NCBI GenBank assembly: GCA_947632345.1
Contig: CANROW010000002.1
Location: 1 to 63,501, forward strand
Source of the DNA: an uncultured Bacilli bacterium
GTDB lineage: Bacteria; Bacillota_I; Bacilli_A; RF39; UBA660
Direction: 5' to 3'
Length of the DNA: 63,501 nt
Positions 7,690 to 33,996 of the stretch are shown piece by piece (within the stretch, counting starts at the first letter, position 1; each line of letters starts with the position of its first letter). The notes beneath the pieces were generated by a model, which had not been told where the DNA came from, ran no database searches, and worked only from the letters and a program-made list of their open reading frames with translations. A program made the translations under genes and the position numbers.

Positions 7690-8037
7690 ATGGCAAATGT
7701 AATTGATAAAATTACAGAAAAACAACTAAACCCAAACTTGCCAGAATTTAGAGTTGGGGACACAGTTAGAGTCGATGTAAAAATCATTGAGGGAAAAAGA
7801 GAAAGAATCCAAGCATTTGAAGGAATTGTAACTGCTCGCAAAGGTGGAGGAGTAAGTGAGACTTTCACAGTTAGAAAAGTTTCATACGGGGTAGGAGTTG
7901 AAAGAATATTCCCAGTTAATTCACCAAAGATTGCCGGTATTACAGTTATTAAGAAAGGTAAAGTAAGAAGAGCTAAATTAAATTTCTTAAAGAATGTTGT
8001 TGGACAATATCGAATTAAAGAAAGAGGACAAGAATAA
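7690..8037 (+). CDS. rplS: 50S ribosomal protein L19
   Basis: 115 aa. Motifs [26 protein letters not shown] and [14 protein letters not shown]. Confidence 0.97.
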
Positions 8038-8060: not shown

Positions 8061-8573
8061 TTGACTATGGAAAACGTAAAAAGAATTGTTAAAGAATATT
8101 GGATTTATGTCGCTATCATCGTTGTCATTCTTTTAATTAAGAGTTACGTCATAGCGCCAATTGTTGTCAATGGTACATCCATGGATTCAACTTTACGTGA
8201 TGGTGATTTAATGCTTCTGAATAAATTCGAATATGAAGTATCAGACATTCATCGCTTTGATATTGTCGTTGTAAAACATGATGGGAAACATATCATTAAA
8301 CGTGTCATAGGAATGCCTGGCGATAGCGTCAAATGTGAAGATAATATTTTATATATTAATGGCAAAGTCTATGCGGAAGAATATTTAGATCCTGGAACAG
8401 AAACTCAAGATTTTGAAATAGCTGAAATTGCCGAAGGCTATTATTTTGTTCTAGGTGATAATCGTGAGGTATCATTAGATAGTCGTTCGATTGGTCCTGT
8501 AAAAGAATCTGATATTGAAGGCCATGCCTTTTTTACATTATTTCCATTTAATCGCTTTGGAAAAAGTGAGTAA
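8061..8573 (+). CDS. lepB: Signal peptidase I
   Basis: N-terminal TM helix, catalytic-Ser box NGTSMDSTL, IKRVIGMPGD, and GDNREVSLDSR. The true start may be ATG 8067. Confidence 0.9.
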   Translation: MTMENVKRIVKEYWIYVAIIVVILLIKSYVIAPIVVNGTSMDSTLRDGDLMLLNKFEYEVSDIHRFDIVVVKHDGKHIIKRVIGMPGDSVKCEDNILYINGKVYAEEYLDPGTETQDFEIAEIAEGYYFVLGDNREVSLDSRSIGPVKESDIEGHAFFTLFPFNRFGKSE

Positions 8574-8585
8574 GGAGAATTGAGA

Positions 8586-9209
8586 ATGAAAGTCATTTTT
8601 GGTACGACGAATAAACGCAAGATTGAAGATTTACAAAATATTAGTAATCAATTCAATCTCGGACTAGATATTTTGAGTATGGATGATATTGGTTGGAATT
8701 TAGGCGAAATTGATGAAATAGGAAATACGCTTGAAGAAAACTCTCTCATTAAAGCCCAAGCTATCTATGATTTTTGTCAAAAAGAGGAGATTAGTTATCC
8801 AATTATTACCGATGACGCAGGATTGTTTTGTGATGCTTTGAATGGTGAACCAGGAATCAAGACTGCGCGATACGCTGATGAAGAAATTGCCTTAAATCCA
8901 ACGCTTCCTAAATATCAATGTGTATATAAATTATTGGAAAAGCTCGATGGTGAAACGAATCGAAAAGCAACATACTATTGTGTAGTAACATGTATGATGC
9001 CTGATAAAACCTATTTTCAAGAAATGGGTGAGAGCCAAGGGACGATTGCGACTGAAGTAATAGGTGAAATGAAAAGACCATACTTTTACTCGGTATTTGT
9101 TTTAGAGGGTAGTGATAAGCCTTTTAATCAATTAAAACCTGAAGAATTATCAGATACATACCGGTATTCAGCTCTTAAGAAGACGTTAAAGAAAATAAGT
9201 AATAGATAA
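8586..9209 (+). CDS. rdgB: Non-canonical purine NTP pyrophosphatase (RdgB/HAM1 family)
   Basis: Motifs VIFGTTNKRKIEDL and ITDDAGLFCDALNGEPGIKTARYA. ATG 8586 follows GGAGAA. Confidence 0.85.
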   Translation: MKVIFGTTNKRKIEDLQNISNQFNLGLDILSMDDIGWNLGEIDEIGNTLEENSLIKAQAIYDFCQKEEISYPIITDDAGLFCDALNGEPGIKTARYADEEIALNPTLPKYQCVYKLLEKLDGETNRKATYYCVVTCMMPDKTYFQEMGESQGTIATEVIGEMKRPYFYSVFVLEGSDKPFNQLKPEELSDTYRYSALKKTLKKISNR

Positions 9210-9311: not shown

Positions 9312-9334
9312 CCAAGAGTTATTCTTGGTTTTTT
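9312..9334 (+). terminator. Rho-independent terminator after rdgB
   Basis: CCAAGA (9312-9317) pairs with TCTTGG (9323-9328), followed by a T6 run. Confidence 0.65.
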
Positions 9335-9379
9335 ATTGATTTAATTGTCAGATACTCATTAAATTTAATTTGCGGAAGG

Positions 9380-10180
9380 ATGGTAAGTATAATGATTAAT
9401 ACAATTGATTTAACTAATGAATATAGTAAATCTCAATTAGAAGAGGAATGGGATAAAATAGAAGCTAAAAAAGATGTAATTATCAAAAACATAAAAATGT
9501 TGTATGAAGTTATTGGTGAAAAAGAACCATCAATTCATCCGCAATGGGGGAGTCCGCATCTTTTTCCTTGGGCATATTTACCAGAAGAAGGTGTTTCTAA
9601 AATTATTATTGGGACGATTCCTCCTAAAAAATATTGTCATGGATTATGTGATGAGTATTATGACAATGAAAATACTTTTTTCTATGAATCTAATCATAAT
9701 AGTTTATGGACATATTTAAATCCTAATTTAAAAACGAAGGAAGAAAAGAGGAGTTATATTAAGGAGCATAAAATCGGTTTTATTGATTTAATAAAGCAAT
9801 GTACTCGTAAAAATAATAGTTCTTTAGATAAAGATTTAATTGTTGACCAGGACGATATAGTTAATATCGATGAATTGGTTAAAGTTTTAAAGTATGCGGA
9901 AGAGATAAATGTGAAAAATGATATCAAAGAAATTAAATTATGTTGTACGAGTCATTCTTTTAAAAGTGCGCATTATTTTTTAAAACAAATAGTAAAAATG
10001 AATAAAGACTATATGGTTATTAATGAAAGAAAAGGCATTTTATCAATCAATTATAAATGTTTTAAAAAGTCATATAAAATAGTCGATTTACCTTCACCTT
10101 CTGGAATTAATCATTCATCAAAGAGAATCACAGAAGAAGAAAAAAGAAAAATATATCAAGATGAATTGCTTTTAAGTTGA
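9380..10180 (+). CDS. Divergent UDG-superfamily protein (family-6 / hypoxanthine-DNA-glycosylase-like) with about 70-aa N-terminal extension
   Basis: The motif order and spacing match DNA-deoxyinosine glycosylases. IIIGTIPP...NSLW compares with ILILGtmPG...N.FW. IGFIDLIKQCTRKNNSSLDKDLI compares with alWDVl..C.R.GSlDs.I. IKLCCTSHSFKSAHYF compares with IfFNG..A. DLPSPSGIN compares with LPSTSPAN. The start is uncertain (9380 or 9392). Confidence 0.6.
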   Translation: MVSIMINTIDLTNEYSKSQLEEEWDKIEAKKDVIIKNIKMLYEVIGEKEPSIHPQWGSPHLFPWAYLPEEGVSKIIIGTIPPKKYCHGLCDEYYDNENTFFYESNHNSLWTYLNPNLKTKEEKRSYIKEHKIGFIDLIKQCTRKNNSSLDKDLIVDQDDIVNIDELVKVLKYAEEINVKNDIKEIKLCCTSHSFKSAHYFLKQIVKMNKDYMVINERKGILSINYKCFKKSYKIVDLPSPSGINHSSKRITEEEKRKIYQDELLLS

Positions 10181-10292
10181 TCTATATAAAAATTTGTTTT
10201 TATGGCTAAAAAACATATAAAATCGAAGATAGAAATGATATAATATTTATGTACTTAAAAAGATTTTATATTAAATGTAGTGGAGGAATGGC

Positions 10293-12773
10293 ATGATTAA
10301 AGAAAAGAGATTTTATGATTCGTTAGAAGGAATTTTTAAGGGTGCTAAAATAGAAGGACAGGGTGGCTTTATAAATTTACTTTCTATCAAAGAGAAGTAT
10401 TATAAAAAAGTTATAAAATATTTTAAGAGTGAAGTGGATAATGACCCAATTATTAATGATTCTTTTAAAGAGGATTTCTATGATAAATTATGTAATTTCT
10501 TCGATAAATTTTTTAGCGAATCTGGAAGCATATATTTTGTTAAATCTGCTAATTGGCAAAAAGTTTATGAGAAGATATATACTGATAATCAAGACGTTGT
10601 TTTATTTTGGAAAACAAACATGTTGTATTATGTAAAATCAGACAAAATATTTAATAATCAAATTATTAAAGTAGACAATGAAGATGGTACATTGAACTTT
10701 ATCTTTAAATTTGATGTCAGCGAATTGCAGATTAAAAAGAATAATGAACGTAAAGATTTTTTATATGTAGCAGATAAAAAAATTCATGAAAAAACGAATT
10801 TACATGACGAAAAAAGTGGCGACTTAATCTATGTTTTAAAAGTGGGTTATGAAGAGAATCGAAAAAAGACAAAATCAGAGCAGATTGCTGCTGAATTTGG
10901 AATTGATGAATATGTTGTGTTAAAAGCGATTAAATCTTTCGAAAAACAGAACAATGTGGATTTCTTTATTAACAAAAATGCTAAGGCCTTTCTTGATGAA
11001 CAATTAGACTTATATATTAATCAAATATTATCATCTGAAGATAATGCCTTTGAACAAACTAGATTAGATCAAATTAAAGCTATAAAAATTTATGCTAAAA
11101 AAATAATTGATTTTATCTCAAATTTTGAAAATGAATTAGTAAAAATATGGAATAAACCAAAATTTGTCTTAAATTCTAATTATGTAATTACTTTGGATAG
11201 GTTAAACGAAAAGTCATTAAACTTAGTAAAAAAACATAAAAATTTAGATTTGCAAATAGATGAATGGAATAAATTAAAACTTATTGATGAAAAGTTTAAT
11301 AAAAAGAAAGATCTTAATTGTAATAGTCATTTGCCAATCGATACGAAGTTTTTTAAAGATATAGAGATTGACATATTATCAAGCTTTGATAATTTAGATA
11401 ATGAATTGGATGGTCTCATTGTTCATAGTGAGAATTATCAAGCACTCAACACCTTAAAAAATAAGTTTGAATCAAAGATTCAATGTATTTATATCGATCC
11501 GCCTTTTAATACAGGATACGATTTTGAATATCTTGATAATTATCAAGATTCATCATGGTTATCTATACTATATGATCGATTAAAATTGGCGAAAGATTAT
11601 TTGAATGAAACTGGTGGATTATATTTACATTTGGATAGATATGCTAATTATTATGGACGAATTTTATTAAATAATATCTTTGGCAAAGATAATTATAAAG
11701 CAGAAATATATTGGGATACTTGTGGTAATACGGGATTTAAGACTAGTAAAAATAATTGGTATCAAAATACGAACAGCATTTTACAATATGCTAAAAATTA
11801 TGAATTAAATAAATTTTATAAACAGTATACATTATTGAATGTTGATGACCAAAACGAGGCGAAACAAGAACGAAAAAATAAAAAAATTGGTTGGCTTGAT
11901 ATTCAAAAAGATGAAGACAAAACTTATGTTGAAATGTATAATGACTCAGGTGAATTTGAAAAAAAATATATTGATTTTACAAATAAAGTGGATCCAGTTG
12001 GAATGATTTGGACCGATATTTTGAGCTTTTTATATACGCAGATTGGAAATAATGAATCATACTTTTTCGATGGTGGTCAAAAACCAGAACATTTATTAGC
12101 TAGAATGATACAAGCTCAGACTAGACCTAAAGAGATGGTTATGGATTTTTATTCAGGAAGTGGTACATCATTAGCGGTTGCTAAAAAATTAAATCGTAAG
12201 TTTTTAGGAATAGAGTTGGGAAGTCATTATAATACTTTTTATGATGATGGTAATAAAGTCGGAATTATTGGTAGATTGAAAAATGTTTTAGCGGGCGATG
12301 CCAAGTTTTATGTAAAGCAACCAGATAGTGATGCCTATAGTCCTCGTACTCCACAATTGACAAGAAATTTAAATTGGAAAGGTGGAGGAGCTTTTAAATA
12401 TTATGATCTTGAACAATATGAAGATTCTCTAAAAAAAGCTTCATATGATTCTTATGATATGCAGTCTTTATTTGATGAAAATATATATGGTCAATATACC
12501 TTCTTCGCTGATAAAAAAATGTTATCAAAATTTAATGTCAATGAAAATGGTCAAATAATGATTGATTTAGACAAATTATTTGATAATATTGATTTGCCAG
12601 AAACTATTTCTAATGCTTTAGGGTTACCAATTAAAAAGATAACGCATGATTCTGTTATCCTTTTAGATGAAGATAAAGAAGTCATTGAGAAATATGACTA
12701 TAAACATATGACAGAAGAAGAGAAAATGCATTTCTTTAACATATTGAAACCTTATCTATGGTGGGGTGAATAG
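10293..12773 (+). CDS. mod: Type III-like DNA methyltransferase (Mod), beta-class N6A/N4C MTase with long extra N- and C-terminal regions
   Basis: 826 aa. ENYQALNTLKNKF...CIYIDPPFNTGY is motif IV (DPPF at nt 11496-11507). It comes before GGQKPEHLLARMI...VMDFYSGSGTSLAVAKKLNRKFLGIELG, which is motif I (nt 12144-12167). Motif IV before motif I is the N6_N4_Mtase arrangement. SD sequence GGAGGA lies upstream. The stop is 2 nt before the res ATG. Confidence 0.85.
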   Translation: MIKEKRFYDSLEGIFKGAKIEGQGGFINLLSIKEKYYKKVIKYFKSEVDNDPIINDSFKEDFYDKLCNFFDKFFSESGSIYFVKSANWQKVYEKIYTDNQDVVLFWKTNMLYYVKSDKIFNNQIIKVDNEDGTLNFIFKFDVSELQIKKNNERKDFLYVADKKIHEKTNLHDEKSGDLIYVLKVGYEENRKKTKSEQIAAEFGIDEYVVLKAIKSFEKQNNVDFFINKNAKAFLDEQLDLYINQILSSEDNAFEQTRLDQIKAIKIYAKKIIDFISNFENELVKIWNKPKFVLNSNYVITLDRLNEKSLNLVKKHKNLDLQIDEWNKLKLIDEKFNKKKDLNCNSHLPIDTKFFKDIEIDILSSFDNLDNELDGLIVHSENYQALNTLKNKFESKIQCIYIDPPFNTGYDFEYLDNYQDSSWLSILYDRLKLAKDYLNETGGLYLHLDRYANYYGRILLNNIFGKDNYKAEIYWDTCGNTGFKTSKNNWYQNTNSILQYAKNYELNKFYKQYTLLNVDDQNEAKQERKNKKIGWLDIQKDEDKTYVEMYNDSGEFEKKYIDFTNKVDPVGMIWTDILSFLYTQIGNNESYFFDGGQKPEHLLARMIQAQTRPKEMVMDFYSGSGTSLAVAKKLNRKFLGIELGSHYNTFYDDGNKVGIIGRLKNVLAGDAKFYVKQPDSDAYSPRTPQLTRNLNWKGGGAFKYYDLEQYEDSLKKASYDSYDMQSLFDENIYGQYTFFADKKMLSKFNVNENGQIMIDLDKLFDNIDLPETISNALGLPIKKITHDSVILLDEDKEVIEKYDYKHMTEEEKMHFFNILKPYLWWGE

Positions 12774-12775
12774 CC

Positions 12776-15637
12776 ATGGAATTGTTTTATGAAAAAGTTG
12801 CAAATGATATTAATTATGAATCATTAGGTGACTGGCAAATTCCTAACATTACTAGTTTTTCTAGTGGGATAAAAGAACTATTTCCTTATCAAGTATCAGC
12901 TATAAAAAACGCTATTAAGTTATTAAATCTATATTATTCTAATAATTGTGATAAAAAGTTATTATTTGATAAATGCGTTGAACGTGGCATGGAGGATGAT
13001 TCTTTTCGCATCTATGAATATGTTCATAAAAAGAAAAATATGCTCTTTTATATAACTAGAAAGTATTATGATGTCTTAGAAAATGACGATAAGAAGTATG
13101 TTGAAGGTTATCACCTTTTTAATCGTGCTTGTTTTTGGATGGCAACAGCTAGCGGTAAAACAATTATTATAATCAAGCTTATTGAAATCATAGATTATTT
13201 ACAAAAAATAGGATGTTTGCCTAAAAATGATATTATGATATTATTTCCAGATAGTAACATTGAAAGTCAATTTAGAAGAGAAGTGCGAAGATATAATTGT
13301 GGTAAGTCTAGAACTATTAATGTTAACAGTTTAAAGGATTATGACACTATAAAAAATTCATTAACCCTCTTCGATGAGATTAATGTCTTTGCATATCGTA
13401 GTGATTTGCTTTCAACTTCTGAAAAAGAAAGACAAATTAATATAGATGCTTATGACAATAATGGTAACTGGTTTGTTCTTTTAGATGAAGCTCATAAAGG
13501 TGATAAAACTGGTGATTCAAAAAGACAAAATTATATAACTCAATGGACGAGAAATGGCTTTTTATTTAACTTTTCAGCTACTTTCACTGATAAAATTGAT
13601 TATTATACAACTGTCTATAACTATAATCTAGAAAAATTTATCACTGATGGTTATGGCAAAAATATATTTGTCAGTAATTCATACTTCACTTTTAATAAAA
13701 AGGATGAATTAAATGATGTCTTAAAGCAAAAACAAGTGTTAAAGTCCTTAATCACTAGTACCTTAATAAAAAAACATAAATTGGATGGTTATTATCATAA
13801 TCCTCTAATCGTTACACTAGTTGATACTGTTAATGAAGATGATTCTGATCTATTTTTGTTTTTTAAAGAAATTGAAAAAATAGCCGTTGGCAATATTGAT
13901 AGTGAAGCCTTTGAAAATGCTAAAAATGAATTGGCTGAAGAATTTGTTCGCAATCAAAAATATTCTCTTGGTAGTGAAGTGATAGTTGGTAATTATTTTT
14001 CAGAAATCAAGAGTATTACAGTAAAAGATGTTTTAAGACAAATTTTTAATTCAAAAACACATGGAAAGATTGAAATAAAATTAGGAGATGCAGCTAAGGA
14101 AATTGCTATGCAATTAGAAACATCATCTTCACCATTTATGCTCATAAAGATTGGTGATGCCAGCAAATTTAGAAGAGATAAATTGAGTTCAAACTATCAA
14201 ATAGGTAAGAGTTATGGAAATCATAAATATTTTGATACTATTAATGACAAAGATAGTAATATTAACATTCTTTTAGGTAGTAGAGCATTTTATGAGGGAT
14301 GGGATAGTAATCGTCCTAATGTAATCAATTTTATAAATATTGGTTCAAATGATGCTAAAAAATTTGTTCTACAAAGTATTGGGCGAGGAGTACGAATTCA
14401 ACCGCTTGAGAATGATTATAATAATCGTAAAAGAGCTAAGCCAAATGATTCTTTTAAAGAAGAATTACTAGAAACTCTATTTGTTTATGCAACCAATAAA
14501 ACAGCTATTAATACTATTCTTGAAACCTTGGATGAAGAAAGAGTTGGCGATGAGATAAGTATTGCACCATTGGCTCAAAATAATCCATCTTTTTCCCTCA
14601 TTTTACCAGAATATGCCATTGATGAAAAACAATATAGCAAGGCCAAATTTTTAATATCTAAACGCTGCCTCAATAAAGTAAAAACGACTTTTGAATTATA
14701 TGAAAAAACTTTATTTATGTTGTTATTTGGTATTTCTTCAAATGATTATGACTATTTAAAAAAAGTGTTGGATGATCAAAGTGTATTTTTAATAGATGAT
14801 TATTATGATTATAAAAATATCAATAAAACTCTTAGTGATATTATTGTCCATATAAAACAAAAGGAACATTTTGTAATAGGTATAAGAAAACTCAATAATA
14901 ATGATATTGTGCATTTTAAACATATAAAATCATCTTTAAGCGAATCTAAAGTTAAAGAATTACAAGATCTTATTTCGAATGTTATTAATTCTAATTCAGA
15001 ACGTGATTTAAATAAGTTAAAAAGTGACTTTGAAAATGGATTAATTACTCTTAACGAATATACTCAAAAAATAATTGATTATGGAAAAATGAGCAATACT
15101 ACCTATTTTGATTCAGAATTGATTTTATATAATATGAAGGAGCATTTGTATGAACCTCTAATAGTTTCTATGAATGAAAATATTAATTATATGAAACATA
15201 TTATCAATGTTGATTCTGAAAGAGAATTTATTGAAAATCTTGATAGTTATATAACTAAAAATACTATTAATTGTAAATGGTGTTTTTCTAAAGTAGATCA
15301 AACATTAGATAATGTATATATGTGGTATTTTAATGAAAAAAGCAATAAATATGATAAGTTTTATCCTGATTTTGTTTTCTGGTTATTAAATGATCAGCAT
15401 TATGACATTTATTTCGTTGATCCAAAAGGTTTTCAAAATGTTGATTATCAGTTTAAAATCGAGGGCTTTAAAGAGTTATTTGAGCATGATGATAAACAGA
15501 ATGTTTTTGAATATGAGAATGAGAAAAAGAGATATTCTGTATCTTTTCACTTATTGATGGTAGGAGACGTATTAGCTGTTCCGCAACCTTATAAAAGATA
15601 TTGTATTAGTCAAAACGATTTTTCTTGGTTGAAATGA
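12776..15637 (+). CDS. res: Type III-like restriction subunit (Res): SF2 helicase/ATPase with C-terminal PD-(D/E)xK nuclease motif
   Basis: 953 aa. Walker A is MATASGKT (nt 13139-13162). DEAH box is LLDEAHKG (13484-13495). FSAT is also present. Motif VI is QSIGRGVRI (14372-14398). The C-terminal YPDFVFW...YFVDPKG is PD...DxK-like (about nt 15365-15427). Confidence 0.8.
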   Translation: MELFYEKVANDINYESLGDWQIPNITSFSSGIKELFPYQVSAIKNAIKLLNLYYSNNCDKKLLFDKCVERGMEDDSFRIYEYVHKKKNMLFYITRKYYDVLENDDKKYVEGYHLFNRACFWMATASGKTIIIIKLIEIIDYLQKIGCLPKNDIMILFPDSNIESQFRREVRRYNCGKSRTINVNSLKDYDTIKNSLTLFDEINVFAYRSDLLSTSEKERQINIDAYDNNGNWFVLLDEAHKGDKTGDSKRQNYITQWTRNGFLFNFSATFTDKIDYYTTVYNYNLEKFITDGYGKNIFVSNSYFTFNKKDELNDVLKQKQVLKSLITSTLIKKHKLDGYYHNPLIVTLVDTVNEDDSDLFLFFKEIEKIAVGNIDSEAFENAKNELAEEFVRNQKYSLGSEVIVGNYFSEIKSITVKDVLRQIFNSKTHGKIEIKLGDAAKEIAMQLETSSSPFMLIKIGDASKFRRDKLSSNYQIGKSYGNHKYFDTINDKDSNINILLGSRAFYEGWDSNRPNVINFINIGSNDAKKFVLQSIGRGVRIQPLENDYNNRKRAKPNDSFKEELLETLFVYATNKTAINTILETLDEERVGDEISIAPLAQNNPSFSLILPEYAIDEKQYSKAKFLISKRCLNKVKTTFELYEKTLFMLLFGISSNDYDYLKKVLDDQSVFLIDDYYDYKNINKTLSDIIVHIKQKEHFVIGIRKLNNNDIVHFKHIKSSLSESKVKELQDLISNVINSNSERDLNKLKSDFENGLITLNEYTQKIIDYGKMSNTTYFDSELILYNMKEHLYEPLIVSMNENINYMKHIINVDSEREFIENLDSYITKNTINCKWCFSKVDQTLDNVYMWYFNEKSNKYDKFYPDFVFWLLNDQHYDIYFVDPKGFQNVDYQFKIEGFKELFEHDDKQNVFEYENEKKRYSVSFHLLMVGDVLAVPQPYKRYCISQNDFSWLK

Positions 15638-15639
15638 TT

Positions 15640-15668
15640 AACTATAAATGTTTATATTATTTATAGTT
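15640..15668 (+). promoter_or_regulatory. Intercistronic hairpin between res and the 410-aa ORF
   Basis: AACTATAAAT / ATTTATAGTT form a 10-bp stem with a 9-nt loop. There is no clean T-run, so it looks more like an attenuator or processing site than a full terminator. Confidence 0.4.
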
Positions 15669-15705
15669 GAATTTTAATACCAGCATATTATGAGGAGTAT
15701 AAATT

Positions 15706-16938
15706 ATGAATTTATTTGATAAATTAAAAAATAATAGGAATGATACTGAAAAGGAAATCATTAATAATGCCGAAATTAATCATGAATGTAATATAGTTAC
15801 TATGAATAACTATATGTTAGCTGATATAAAAAAGGAACAATTAAACAAAAATACTTTTTCATTGGCGATATCAAAAATAAAACAATCTAGTCCGTTATTA
15901 GTACAAACTGTTGATGAAATTAAACATGTTGTTGAATCCAATGCCAAAAATCATCATAATAATAGTAAGTTATATCGAGTAACAAATCTTGGCAAAGATG
16001 ATTCTTTAAAAGAAATGAAAAAAGGTAAAACTTTTTGGGGTGCTATCAAAACTAAGGAAGGCAAATCCAAAATGGCCAAACTTAAAGAGGTCAACGTTGA
16101 CGGTAAATTAGCTTTAGATCCAGTGACAATCATGATGACCGTAGCTCTTTCTAATATTGAAGCCGATCTAGGTGAGATAAAAGAATTAAATAAGAAAATA
16201 TTATCATTTTTAGAAGAAGAAAAAGAATCAGAAATTGAAGCCGATTTGGAATTATTGAATCATTCTATCATTGATTTTCAATATAATTTAGAGAATGAAC
16301 AGTATTTAGCAAATAATCATAAACAAGTTATGGACATTAAAAGAACAGCTAATAAAAATATGCTTTTCTACCAGAAACAAATAAATGATTTTTTAGCTAA
16401 AGAAAGAATTATGACAACTAGTAATGTCATGAATTCACTATTGAATGACCTTGTCAAAAAGTTCAAATATTATCGAATGTCTTTGTACATATATTCCTTT
16501 TCTACACTAATGGAAATCTTATTATTAGGAAATTATCAAAGTGACTATCTATTAGCTAAAAGAGATGAATTAGATATATTAGATGCTGAGTATTCACAAA
16601 CTTATAATACGGCTTTAAACTATATTAAAAAGAATGCTGATAAATCGTTAGAAAGTAATCTTCTATCAGGGATTGGTAGTGCTGGTAAAGTAATAGGTAA
16701 TTTAGCGGAAAAGGTCGATGTGATTAAAAATAAAAATATTGATACTTGGTTTAATGAAAAAGGAGATAATTTAAAACAGAAGGGTGAAAGTCTTAAAAAT
16801 CAATTTTCTGATTCTTTCGACGATATAAAGATGACAAACGCTACAACTTTTATCAAAAAGATTGAACAAGTTGATTCTATATATAACAAGACAAAAGAGA
16901 TATATTTCGATAGCGAAAACATTTATTTACAAATGTAA
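15706..16938 (+). CDS. Hypothetical 410-aa, mostly alpha-helical/coiled-coil protein; last gene of the Mod/Res cassette
   Basis: SD sequence GAGGAG lies 8 nt upstream. The composition is helical with heptad-like stretches (EIKELNKKILSFLEEEKESEIEADLELL). No NTPase, nuclease or TM motif was seen. Confidence 0.7.
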   Translation: MNLFDKLKNNRNDTEKEIINNAEINHECNIVTMNNYMLADIKKEQLNKNTFSLAISKIKQSSPLLVQTVDEIKHVVESNAKNHHNNSKLYRVTNLGKDDSLKEMKKGKTFWGAIKTKEGKSKMAKLKEVNVDGKLALDPVTIMMTVALSNIEADLGEIKELNKKILSFLEEEKESEIEADLELLNHSIIDFQYNLENEQYLANNHKQVMDIKRTANKNMLFYQKQINDFLAKERIMTTSNVMNSLLNDLVKKFKYYRMSLYIYSFSTLMEILLLGNYQSDYLLAKRDELDILDAEYSQTYNTALNYIKKNADKSLESNLLSGIGSAGKVIGNLAEKVDVIKNKNIDTWFNEKGDNLKQKGESLKNQFSDSFDDIKMTNATTFIKKIEQVDSIYNKTKEIYFDSENIYLQM

Positions 16939-31318: not shown

Positions 31319-31672
31319 ATGTCTAAGAAAAAAATAAGAGAAAGTTTGGAAAATTTTATGGATAAATATATAATTGTAACAACGCTATGTGATAAAGAGG
31401 CCATAGCAAATCAGATAATTGATACATTACTTGAAAAAAAATTGGTAGCTGGAAGTCAGCTTAGTAAAGTTAGTTCTAAGTATTGGTGGAATAATGAATT
31501 AGAAGAGTGTAGCGAATATAAATTAGAGTTTAGAACAAAAGAAAGAAAATTTACTACAATTGAGAATGAAATAAAGAAAATCCATGATTATGATGTTGCT
31601 GAAATTTCAAGCTGTGAAATCAAAACAGCCAGTAAAGAATTTTTAAATTGGATAGATGAAAATGTAAAATAA
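31319..31672 (+). CDS. cutA: Divalent-cation tolerance protein CutA
   Basis: 117 aa. CutA1 pattern IIVTTLCDKEAIANQI...LVAGSQ...YWWNNELEE..EYKLEFRT...I.KIHDYDVAEI. Confidence 0.7.
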   Translation: MSKKKIRESLENFMDKYIIVTTLCDKEAIANQIIDTLLEKKLVAGSQLSKVSSKYWWNNELEECSEYKLEFRTKERKFTTIENEIKKIHDYDVAEISSCEIKTASKEFLNWIDENVK

Positions 31673-33102: not shown

Positions 33103-33996
33103 ATGGACAATCGACAAAATCAGGTAAACATAAATTGGTATCCAGGTCATATGGCTAAAACCAAAAAAGAAATAAGTGAAATGATTAATTTAATTGATAT
33201 CATTTATGAAGTTGTAGACAGTCGTATGCCTCTTAGTAGTAAGATTGTTGATATTGATGAATTGATTAAAAATAAGCCACGAATTATTATTTTTACTAAA
33301 TATGATTTATGTGACGAAAAAGAAACAGATAAGTTTGTTTCATATTATGAGAGTTTAGGTTTTAAAGTTATTTGTTGTGATTTGATCAATAATAAAAATG
33401 TAATTAATAAAATTCTTTTAGAGAGTAATGCTATTTTAAAAGATATGAATGCTAAGAGAATCGCTAAAGGAATGAAGCCTCGCAGTATTAGAGCTTTAGT
33501 AATTGGCGTTCCTAATGTCGGTAAATCAACACTTATCAATCGTTTAGTTGGAAGAAAAGCGGCTAATATTGGTGATAAACCTGGTGTTACTAAAACGTTA
33601 AGTTGGATTAGAATTAACAAAGATATTGAGCTTCTTGATTCTCCTGGTATTTTATGGCCTAAGATTGAAAATCAAAAACATGCTTATAATTTAGCTTCTC
33701 TTTCTTCAATCAAAGAAGAGATAGTTGATAATGAAGCTTTGAGCATTCATATTTTAAAAACAATGTATGATTTATACCCTGAGAGATTGAAAGAACGTTA
33801 TGGAATAGAAAATATTGATCTTGATGATATCGTCCCAACTTTAGATATCATTGCTACCAAAAGAGGAGCTTTATTAAAGGGGGGCGAAAAAGACTATGAC
33901 AAAGTTTATTCAATCATTATTAGAGATTTAAAAGACGGTCTATTAGGTAAGATTACTTTTGATCGTATTGACGAAATTAATCATTCTTCTGTTTAA
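33103..33996 (+). CDS. rbgA: Ribosome biogenesis GTPase A (RbgA/YlqF)
   Basis: Motif INWYPGHMAKT and circularly permuted GTPase motifs (TKYDL...GVPNVGKSTLINRL...DSPGILWP). ATG 33103 follows AAGGAAG. Confidence 0.9.
   Translation: MDNRQNQVNINWYPGHMAKTKKEISEMINLIDIIYEVVDSRMPLSSKIVDIDELIKNKPRIIIFTKYDLCDEKETDKFVSYYESLGFKVICCDLINNKNVINKILLESNAILKDMNAKRIAKGMKPRSIRALVIGVPNVGKSTLINRLVGRKAANIGDKPGVTKTLSWIRINKDIELLDSPGILWPKIENQKHAYNLASLSSIKEEIVDNEALSIHILKTMYDLYPERLKERYGIENIDLDDIVPTLDIIATKRGALLKGGEKDYDKVYSIIIRDLKDGLLGKITFDRIDEINHSSV

Follow-up and report, generated by a model that had tools for sequence, protein, structure and literature searches.

The gene and its surroundings

The window is a stretch of 63,501 nucleotides (contig CANROW010000002.1, positions 1 to 63,501 of the forward strand, assembly GCA_947632345.1) from an uncultured Bacilli bacterium, and the sequence has been recovered solely from DNA runs of rabbit gut metagenome. 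Here, we will be concerned with one gene in it, which encodes a glycosylase-like protein directly upstream of a type III Mod/Res module, and with the features on either side:

8580 to 9209, forward strand: rdgB/Ham1 (d)ITP/XTP pyrophosphatase, the upstream neighbour (Pfam Ham1p_like, E=4.6e-33)
9312 to 9338, forward strand: terminator-like hairpin and T-run between rdgB and the glycosylase gene, modest (-7.1 kcal/mol, z=-1.6)
9380 to 10180, forward strand: UDG-superfamily, family-6-like glycosylase gene, 266 aa from the ATG at 9380 and probably 262 aa from the ATG at 9392
10236 to 10244, forward strand: TGATATAAT, an extended -10-like (TGnTATAAT) element within the 112-nt spacer before mod
10293 to 15637, forward strand: type III Mod/Res module (Mod 826 aa, Res 953 aa), a neighbour and not part of the feature

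The Shine–Dalgarno sequence GGAAGG (9374-9379) directly abuts the ATG at 9380 and sits 12 nt ahead of the ATG at 9392; therefore, translation probably begins at 9392 to give a protein of 262 aa, the length also recorded for the window protein in the protein collection (P0001).

Standard models do not recover this protein when it is scanned alone. Pfam PF03167 reaches E=0.026 and 15 bits, below its cut-off of 24.3, and NCBIfam TIGR04274 (DNA-deoxyinosine glycosylase) reaches E=0.0064 and 16.6 bits against a curated equivalog cut-off of 80 bits. A phmmer search of the single sequence against the PDB gave no match, and a word-index homolog search returned the protein itself, one 90% identical fragment, and nothing more. 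Scanning the protein with PADLOC (PADLOC-DB v2.0.0, 2023) produced no relevant match; this release is reportedly older than the report of the antiviral glycosylase Brig1. Base composition does not usefully set the gene apart from its neighbours, as its GC content (26.1%) is like that of Mod/Res and its GC3 (0.18) like that of rplS, cutA, and rbgA.

Fold, motifs, and family affinity

An exhaustive HMMER search of 1.84 billion representatives (E≤1e-3) found 71 relatives of the glycosylase, most of them about 200 aa long. Sixty-four of these were aligned (A1), and this alignment is the basis of the profile, the model input, and the conservation figures given below. Scanned singly, 61 of the 64 relatives match TIGR04274 (best E=5.2e-20) and 19 match PF03167 (best E=1.1e-7). 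When compared with the PDB, the profile of the 64 relatives matched 2L3F at E=1.1e-15, the next UDG matches (MUG) being at E of about 0.5; hhalign of the same profile with 2L3F gave a probability of 98.5% and E=2.6e-15 over 150 columns. The entry 2L3F, titled [quoted passage not shown] is the family-6-type structural representative.

The AlphaFold2 model built from the A1 alignment has a mean pLDDT of 87.2 and a pTM of 0.82, with core blocks at pLDDT 90-97. In a Foldseek search of the PDB with this model, the ten best matches were all UDG-superfamily glycosylases. The first was 2L3F (E=4.5e-5, prob 1.00, target TM 0.57), followed by human TDG, the MUG proteins of D. radiodurans and E. coli, a family-4 UDG, UdgX, and SMUG1; family-2 structures were matched at E=3.4e-3 (4JGC), 6.5e-3 (2C2P), and 1.5e-2 (1MUG), and the family-4 structure 4ZBY ranked fifth (E=0.02). 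Transitive sequence homology, together with a model whose ten best PDB matches belong to the UDG superfamily, thus supports the description of the protein as a divergent, family-6 (HDG)-like member of the UDG fold. The first-pass annotation had made this claim from the letters alone and had named the absence of a significant profile or structural match for an AlphaFold model as grounds for abandoning it; significant UDG-fold matches were what both the relatives' profile and the model returned.

Within the protein, all of the motifs that the annotation had quoted from the open reading frame are present and in the order given there, and the profile and hhalign matches to 2L3F show that this is no chance resemblance. 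Together with the other segments of the protein, they are as follows:

9380 to 9535, forward strand, residues 1-52: N-terminal extension, charged (11 D/E, 7 K/R), with predicted helices at residues 17-29 and 31-44
9536 to 9550, forward strand: HPQWG, with H53 invariant and P54 present in at least 90% of the 64 relatives; no aligned counterpart in 2L3F
residues 75-82, forward strand: IIIGTIPP, the motif 1 stretch
9611 to 9625, forward strand: motif 1 GTIPP, aligned with GSLPS of 2L3F; G78 and P81 invariant
9626 to 9673, forward strand, residues 83-98: KKYCHGLCDEYYDNEN, which holds the 9-residue insertion relative to 2L3F (pLDDT about 78-79, below the core)
9677 to 9709, forward strand, residues 100-110: FFYESNHNSLW, the aromatic/Asn segment, with Y102, N107, and W110 conserved; aligned with YYGNPGNDFW of 2L3F
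9773 to 9838, forward strand, residues 132-153: IGFIDLIKQCTRKNNSSLDKDL, with D136 invariant and D150 nearly invariant, both paired with an Asp of 2L3F
residues 185-200, forward strand: IKLCCTSHSFKSAHYF, the quoted motif region with CTS
9944 to 9952, forward strand, residues 189-191: CTS in place of the family-6 FNG; T190 in at least 90% of the clade
10085 to 10111, forward strand, residues 236-244: motif 2 DLPSPSGIN, aligned with VLPSSSGAN of 2L3F

Five residues (H53, G78, P81, W110, and D136) are invariant over the 64 relatives and a further six (P54, Y102, N107, D150, T190, and P240) are conserved in at least 90% of them. In the hhalign alignment, N107 and W110 pair with the N and W of GNDFW in 2L3F, D136 with the Asp of WDV, D150 with the Asp of QDS, T190-S191 with the N-G of FNG, and PSPSG with PSSSG. 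All residues common to the clade and 2L3F (G78, P81, Y102, N107, W110, D136, D150, and PSPSG) are kept in the window protein. The catalytic Asn of family 6 presumably lies within the N-x-F-W segment, and by alignment N107 would be its counterpart.

Of all known families, family 6 (HDG, TIGR04274; 2L3F) is the best match in both sequence and structure, and it shares with the window protein the fold and the linear order of the motifs. Motif 1 (G-[ST]-x-P) can be aligned, as can the segment Y..N.[FL]W, the two Asp residues, and motif 2 (LPS[PS]SG.N), where the family-6 pattern L-P-S-S-S-G-x-N is answered by LPSPSGIN at residues 237-244. The differences are equally specific. In family 6, G-S-x-P-S leads directly to YYxxxxNxFW, whereas the window protein has GTIPP and then the 9-residue insertion; family 6 has F-N-G after the central strand, whereas the window protein has CTS. 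The window protein also adds the invariant His-Pro before strand 1 and the 52-aa helical extension at its N-terminus. Family 2 (MUG/TDG) supplies the second-best structural neighbour, but its profile-to-sequence match is not significant (E of about 0.5) and the window protein has no GINPG motif. Some members of the clade carry the JGI label "G:T/U-mismatch repair DNA glycosylase." To judge from the alignments and the model, the protein clearly belongs to the UDG superfamily, with family 6 as its nearest known relative, and the curated threshold and the two motif features would place it outside family 6.

The first-pass annotation had read three features as signs of a repurposed scaffold, and each needs some correction. 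The N-terminal extension is present and charged, but it is about 52 aa and not about 70 aa long, since the conserved core of the wider clade already takes in residues 53-74, which open with the invariant H53-P54. The Cys/His-containing insertion inside motif 1 also exists; it measures 9 residues against 2L3F and occurs in essentially all relatives, for which the consensus is PPxRFCxxxxxxxxxDxxFYYGS. C86, the C of RFC, is a widely conserved position (at least 90% in the A2 subset), but H87 recurs in P0003 only and C90 varies (Tyr in P0003), and the conservation of these three residues across the relatives gives no metal-site signature. Likewise, CTS does replace FNG, but with T190 in at least 90% of the clade the exchange is not peculiar to the window protein; P0003 has TG where the window protein has the TS of CTS. 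By alignment, then, two of the three features, the insertion and the change of NG to TS, are general to a large uncharacterised clade. E103, which replaces the clade Gly of FYYGS, is confined to the four-cluster subclade described below.

Subclade, chromosomal slot, and the adjoining R-M module

In the maximum-likelihood tree, the window protein groups with P0002, P0003, and P0004 in a clade with support of 100/99 and a long stem of 1.15 substitutions per site; 2L3F falls inside the set of other relatives and not outside it. The N-terminal extension is found only in this four-cluster subclade, where, beyond the window, P0003 and P0004, the closest relatives, have it. As the subclade comprises 4 clusters among 1.8 billion representatives, the tree and the searches place the protein in a rare, extended, long-branched subclade of an uncharacterised family-6-like group. 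Its closest full-length homolog, P0003, has 247 aa and aligns end to end at 36% identity by phmmer and 33% by tblastn; P0083 is a strain variant of P0003, and both are 33-36% identical to the window protein. Across this 33-36% identity, the clade-invariant residues are all retained in the window protein, P0003, and P0004, and the ORF is undisrupted in all assemblies seen.

The constraint on the gene can be estimated to some degree from strain variants of its ortholog. Between the loci L001 and L018, there are seven non-synonymous differences and one synonymous difference in the glycosylase gene (pN/pS about 1.6), as against 18 non-synonymous and 56 synonymous differences in seven flanking genes (Fisher p=8e-4 for the glycosylase gene versus these). 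None of the seven non-synonymous differences touches a motif residue. The excess of amino-acid change hints at something unlike a tightly constrained housekeeping enzyme; it is compatible with relaxed or with diversifying selection, both of which fit a total of 8 substitutions equally well. For the window sequence itself, comparison with L006 over 549 aligned columns gives, as the sole difference, 12 gap positions that correspond to a 4-residue deletion in P0002, and dN/dS is thus uninformative.

In at least five assemblies, P0003 and P0083 are found within the gene order greA-rplS-...-lepB-[gene]-cutA-rbgA-rnhB-ltaS-topA, and R-M genes are absent there. The gene lies 19 nt downstream of lepB and overlaps the start of cutA by 4 nt. 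By tblastn, the same genes are found in the window, with rplS at 7690, lepB at 8082, the glycosylase at 9395, cutA at 31358, and rbgA at 33124. Because relative and window have the same rplS, lepB, cutA, and rbgA around the gene, gene order indicates that the glycosylase gene is an ancestral resident of the rplS-lepB...cutA-rbgA-rnhB neighbourhood. No rdgB gene occurs at the corresponding position in the P0003-type relative. One might be tempted to describe the stretch between the gene and cutA in the window as a 21-kb insertion; this would be an over-reading, since teichoic-acid, YfhO, and MgsA genes lie in the stretch as well, and it may represent a rearrangement rather than one island.

The adjoining module can be examined in the same manner. 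Mod (10293-12773) is a full-length match to PADLOC MTase_III (E=7.8e-175), and Res (12776-15637) is a ResIII/REase_III protein (PADLOC REase_III, E=7.6e-33). Among 185,579 species genomes, the only close relative of Mod was found in an uncultured Bacilli MAG (L012), where Mod is 76% and Res 72% identical and the module is flanked by recG and a B3_4-domain gene. Nucleotide similarity between this locus and the window is limited to window positions 10293-15635, from the start of mod through the stop of res. A profile scan of L012 found no UDG-like ORF, and the 410-aa ORF that lies downstream of res in the window is not in L012 either. Because the similarity is confined to mod-res, with neither of these ORFs, sequence comparison marks Mod/Res as a self-contained, independent two-gene unit that landed beside the glycosylase gene.

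A survey of 50 metagenomic loci of the main group, with up to two genes per side available at 32 of them, gave 96 neighbouring proteins, among which there was a single R-M protein (an N6_Mtase). The commonest neighbour was PAD_porph (7 of the 96 proteins, possibly from related loci), and no other partner recurred in the Pfam tally of these 96; the remainder were miscellaneous and included polA, pgk, uvrC, and lepA. All-versus-all BLAST of flanking ORFs found no recurring partner gene in the wider clade, and eight Pfam-annotated contexts of relatives held no R-M genes. Searches for the glycosylase by tblastn gave no phage or plasmid matches, PHROG gave no match, and BFVD gave weak matches to phage UDGs only. 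Some distant relatives have genes of mobile or defence type nearby, which, like the strain differences, speaks against a tightly constrained housekeeping role; these are Fic together with a caspase-like protease, Bro-N, a transposase, HipA (at two loci), a rolling-circle Rep, and a nucleotidyltransferase fusion with an NTase_sub_bind protein beside it.

What, then, of the glycosylase gene as the head of an R-M operon, as first annotated? The gene is indeed directly upstream of Mod/Res and on the same strand, and this position is its sole likeness to the accessory genes of type III R-M systems; position alone, however, is no evidence for an operon. The 112-nt spacer between the gene and mod has no predicted terminator but does hold the TGnTATAAT element ahead of mod; read-through into mod may occur but would be incidental. 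The proposed functional or regulatory link to Mod/Res is not supported: the ortholog occupies its slot with no Mod/Res beside it, the related Mod/Res module has no glycosylase, and 1 of 96 neighbours is an R-M protein. Since Mod/Res is a two-gene module in its own right and adjoins the gene by chance, the evidence does not favour the view of the glycosylase as an R-M component, and we see no evidence that it works jointly with Mod/Res.

Probable function and competing readings

We consider it probable that the gene is a resident of the chromosome that encodes a stand-alone, most likely active, monofunctional DNA glycosylase of the UDG superfamily and of the repair type, and that it is not a component of the R-M system. 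We infer base excision that leaves an abasic site. Motif 1, the aromatic/Asn segment, and motif 2 would form a pocket into which a damaged or non-canonical base is flipped; the N-glycosidic bond of this base would be cleaved, and the resulting abasic site would be left for base-excision repair.

As for the substrate, family 6 (HDG) is described, in the work of Lee, Dominy & Cao (2011) as cited in PMC5387724, as excising hypoxanthine with no excision of uracil. By analogy, our leading guess is a deaminated purine (hypoxanthine or xanthine, for instance), although it is a tentative one to which we give somewhat less than an even chance. It is favoured because of the affinity to family 6 and because rdgB (ITPase) lies just upstream, with rnhB downstream in the relative. 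The exchange of NG for TS, together with E103, could make both activity and substrate different from those of HDG.

Glycosylases of the UDG fold are also established as defence enzymes, namely Brig1 (PMC11078745), an antiviral glycosylase closest to family 4 (4ZBY) and located in defence islands, and Brig2 (10.1101/2025.10.29.685425). Like these, the window gene is a stand-alone UDG-fold gene that is too divergent for the standard family models, and one may ask whether it excises a phage-specific modified base in the same manner, either alone or as a complement to type III R-M, since modified phage DNA would otherwise evade the latter. We regard this as unlikely. The gene does adjoin Mod/Res in the same orientation, and no terminator is predicted in the spacer, but the same module in L012 does without a glycosylase, and the ortholog lies in a housekeeping operon (lepB-cutA-rbgA-rnhB) that has no defence genes and is neither a defence island nor a mobile element. 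Several distant relatives are found in accessory contexts, although the contexts of these relatives are mixed, and the 96 neighbours across the main group include a single R-M protein, with polA, pgk, uvrC, and lepA among the others. The ratio of 7:1 in the ortholog against 18:56 in the flanking genes (p=8e-4) would be compatible with an arms race, but the signal consists of 8 substitutions and relaxed constraint fits it equally well. Brig1 is closest to a family-4 structure that ranks fifth for our model (E=0.02), whereas the window gene is closest to family 6 and sits in a conserved housekeeping slot; the two are set apart here by description and not by sequence.

A further reading is that of a catalytically dead or decaying UDG-fold protein that serves as a lesion- or DNA-binding scaffold, or whose gene is drifting towards loss. 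The pN/pS of about 1.6 in the ortholog, the long stem branch (1.15 substitutions per site), the change of Gly to Glu at position 103 along with that of NG to TS, and the rarity of the subclade (4 clusters among 1.8 billion representatives) would all agree with decay. Nevertheless, we hold it to be very unlikely: the residues invariant in the wider clade are all kept in the window protein, P0003, and P0004 at 33-36% identity, 0 of 7 strain differences fall on motif residues, every assembly seen has an undamaged ORF, and the core of the model is confident (pLDDT 90-97).

A more ambitious proposal joins the clade signature to the idea of immunity. In it, the clade marked by HP...G[TS]xPPxRFC plus a 9-aa insert...FYYGSxxNxFW...D...TS...SPS would be a distinct UDG family with an enlarged pocket and a substrate other than hypoxanthine, and the fast-evolving subclade would represent a gene for base-excision immunity, settled at a hot spot of the chromosome and backing the neighbouring type III R-M system against phages with modified DNA. 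We think it quite unlikely that this holds as a whole.

A repair-type glycosylase, resident in its slot, thus remains the reading that we prefer, and it removes the tempting inference of a glycosylase heading an R-M operon. For those who annotate similar loci, we would point out that the synteny of a relative and the limits of homology of an R-M module can tell neighbours from partners. The analysis also marks out a family-6-like group of the UDG fold, with at least 71 clusters at 50% identity, in which no characterised member was found. The group has a signature of its own, consisting of the invariant His-Pro, the 9-residue insertion that follows motif 1, and TS where family 6 has NG, and it could, once assayed, widen the range of substrates known for the UDG superfamily.

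Neighborhood of the glycosylase gene

In the relative carrying the closest full-length ortholog (strain-variant loci L001 and L018), the end of the glycosylase gene is overlapped by cutA, whereas in the window the two genes lie ~21 kb apart (window 10181-31357, compared with L001:8741). Upstream, rdgB sits between lepB and the glycosylase gene in the window and is missing from that place in L001. The features of this region are as follows:

9380-10180 (+), glycosylase gene, a divergent family-6-like UDG-fold protein
10181-31357, the ~21 kb: Mod/Res, the 410-aa ORF (orf410), TagF-like and YfhO genes, two DUF4230 genes, an HTH regulator, a 937-aa protein and mgsA
10293-12773 (+), mod
15638-15670 (approximate), 13-bp AT-rich hairpin
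15706-16938, 410-aa ORF

The glycosylase-gene neighborhood is a hot spot for rearrangement or insertion. Between L001 and L018, compared from lepB to an ABC transporter gene, seven housekeeping genes together carry 56 synonymous and 18 non-synonymous differences; the glycosylase ortholog carries 1 and 7, respectively.

The type III pair and the ORF after res

At 826 aa, Mod is of unusual length, and ~380 aa of it precede the methyltransferase domain. Because a single PADLOC type III profile (PDLC03638) matches it from end to end, this long architecture is an already existing subtype and not a one-off. The 410-aa ORF that follows res had no match in Pfam, NCBIfam, PADLOC, or PHROG, and is not present at the related Mod/Res locus of another Bacilli MAG (L012). 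The hairpin (z=-2.8) lies between it and res. This ORF lies outside the conserved R-M module.

UDG-like relatives in other settings

Among the nearest neighbors of the main UDG-like clade (metagenomic loci L020-L069), 7 of 96 are Porphyromonas-type peptidyl-arginine/agmatine deiminases (PAD_porph), which may stem either from kinship among several genomes or from true linkage. At L013, the UDG-like gene (P0007, L013:7001-7600) is preceded by a 134-aa ORF (L013:6352-6756), a truncated tandem paralog in which motif 1 is missing and the IGITD...TS...SPS half is retained; two HipA-type toxin genes flank the locus.

In GCA_947627805.1, tsaE-tsaB-rimI-tsaD directly precedes a tight run of four overlapping or almost abutting genes (L016:3536-5852), encoding HTH_3 (203 aa), UDG-like, 131-aa, and 221-aa proteins, of which the UDG-like member (P0086, 214 aa) shares the HPKWG start and has no N-terminal extension.

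In a Campylobacterales MAG (GCA_050251635.1; L015:6609-7858, also P0022), a family-6-like UDG domain is preceded, within one fusion protein, by an MntA/Pol-beta-type nucleotidyltransferase (285 aa). The fusion gene begins inside the 3' end of an NTase_sub_bind gene, whose product is HEPN-like. The pair resembles a HepT/MntA-style toxin-antitoxin system in which the antitoxin would bear the glycosylase-like domain.
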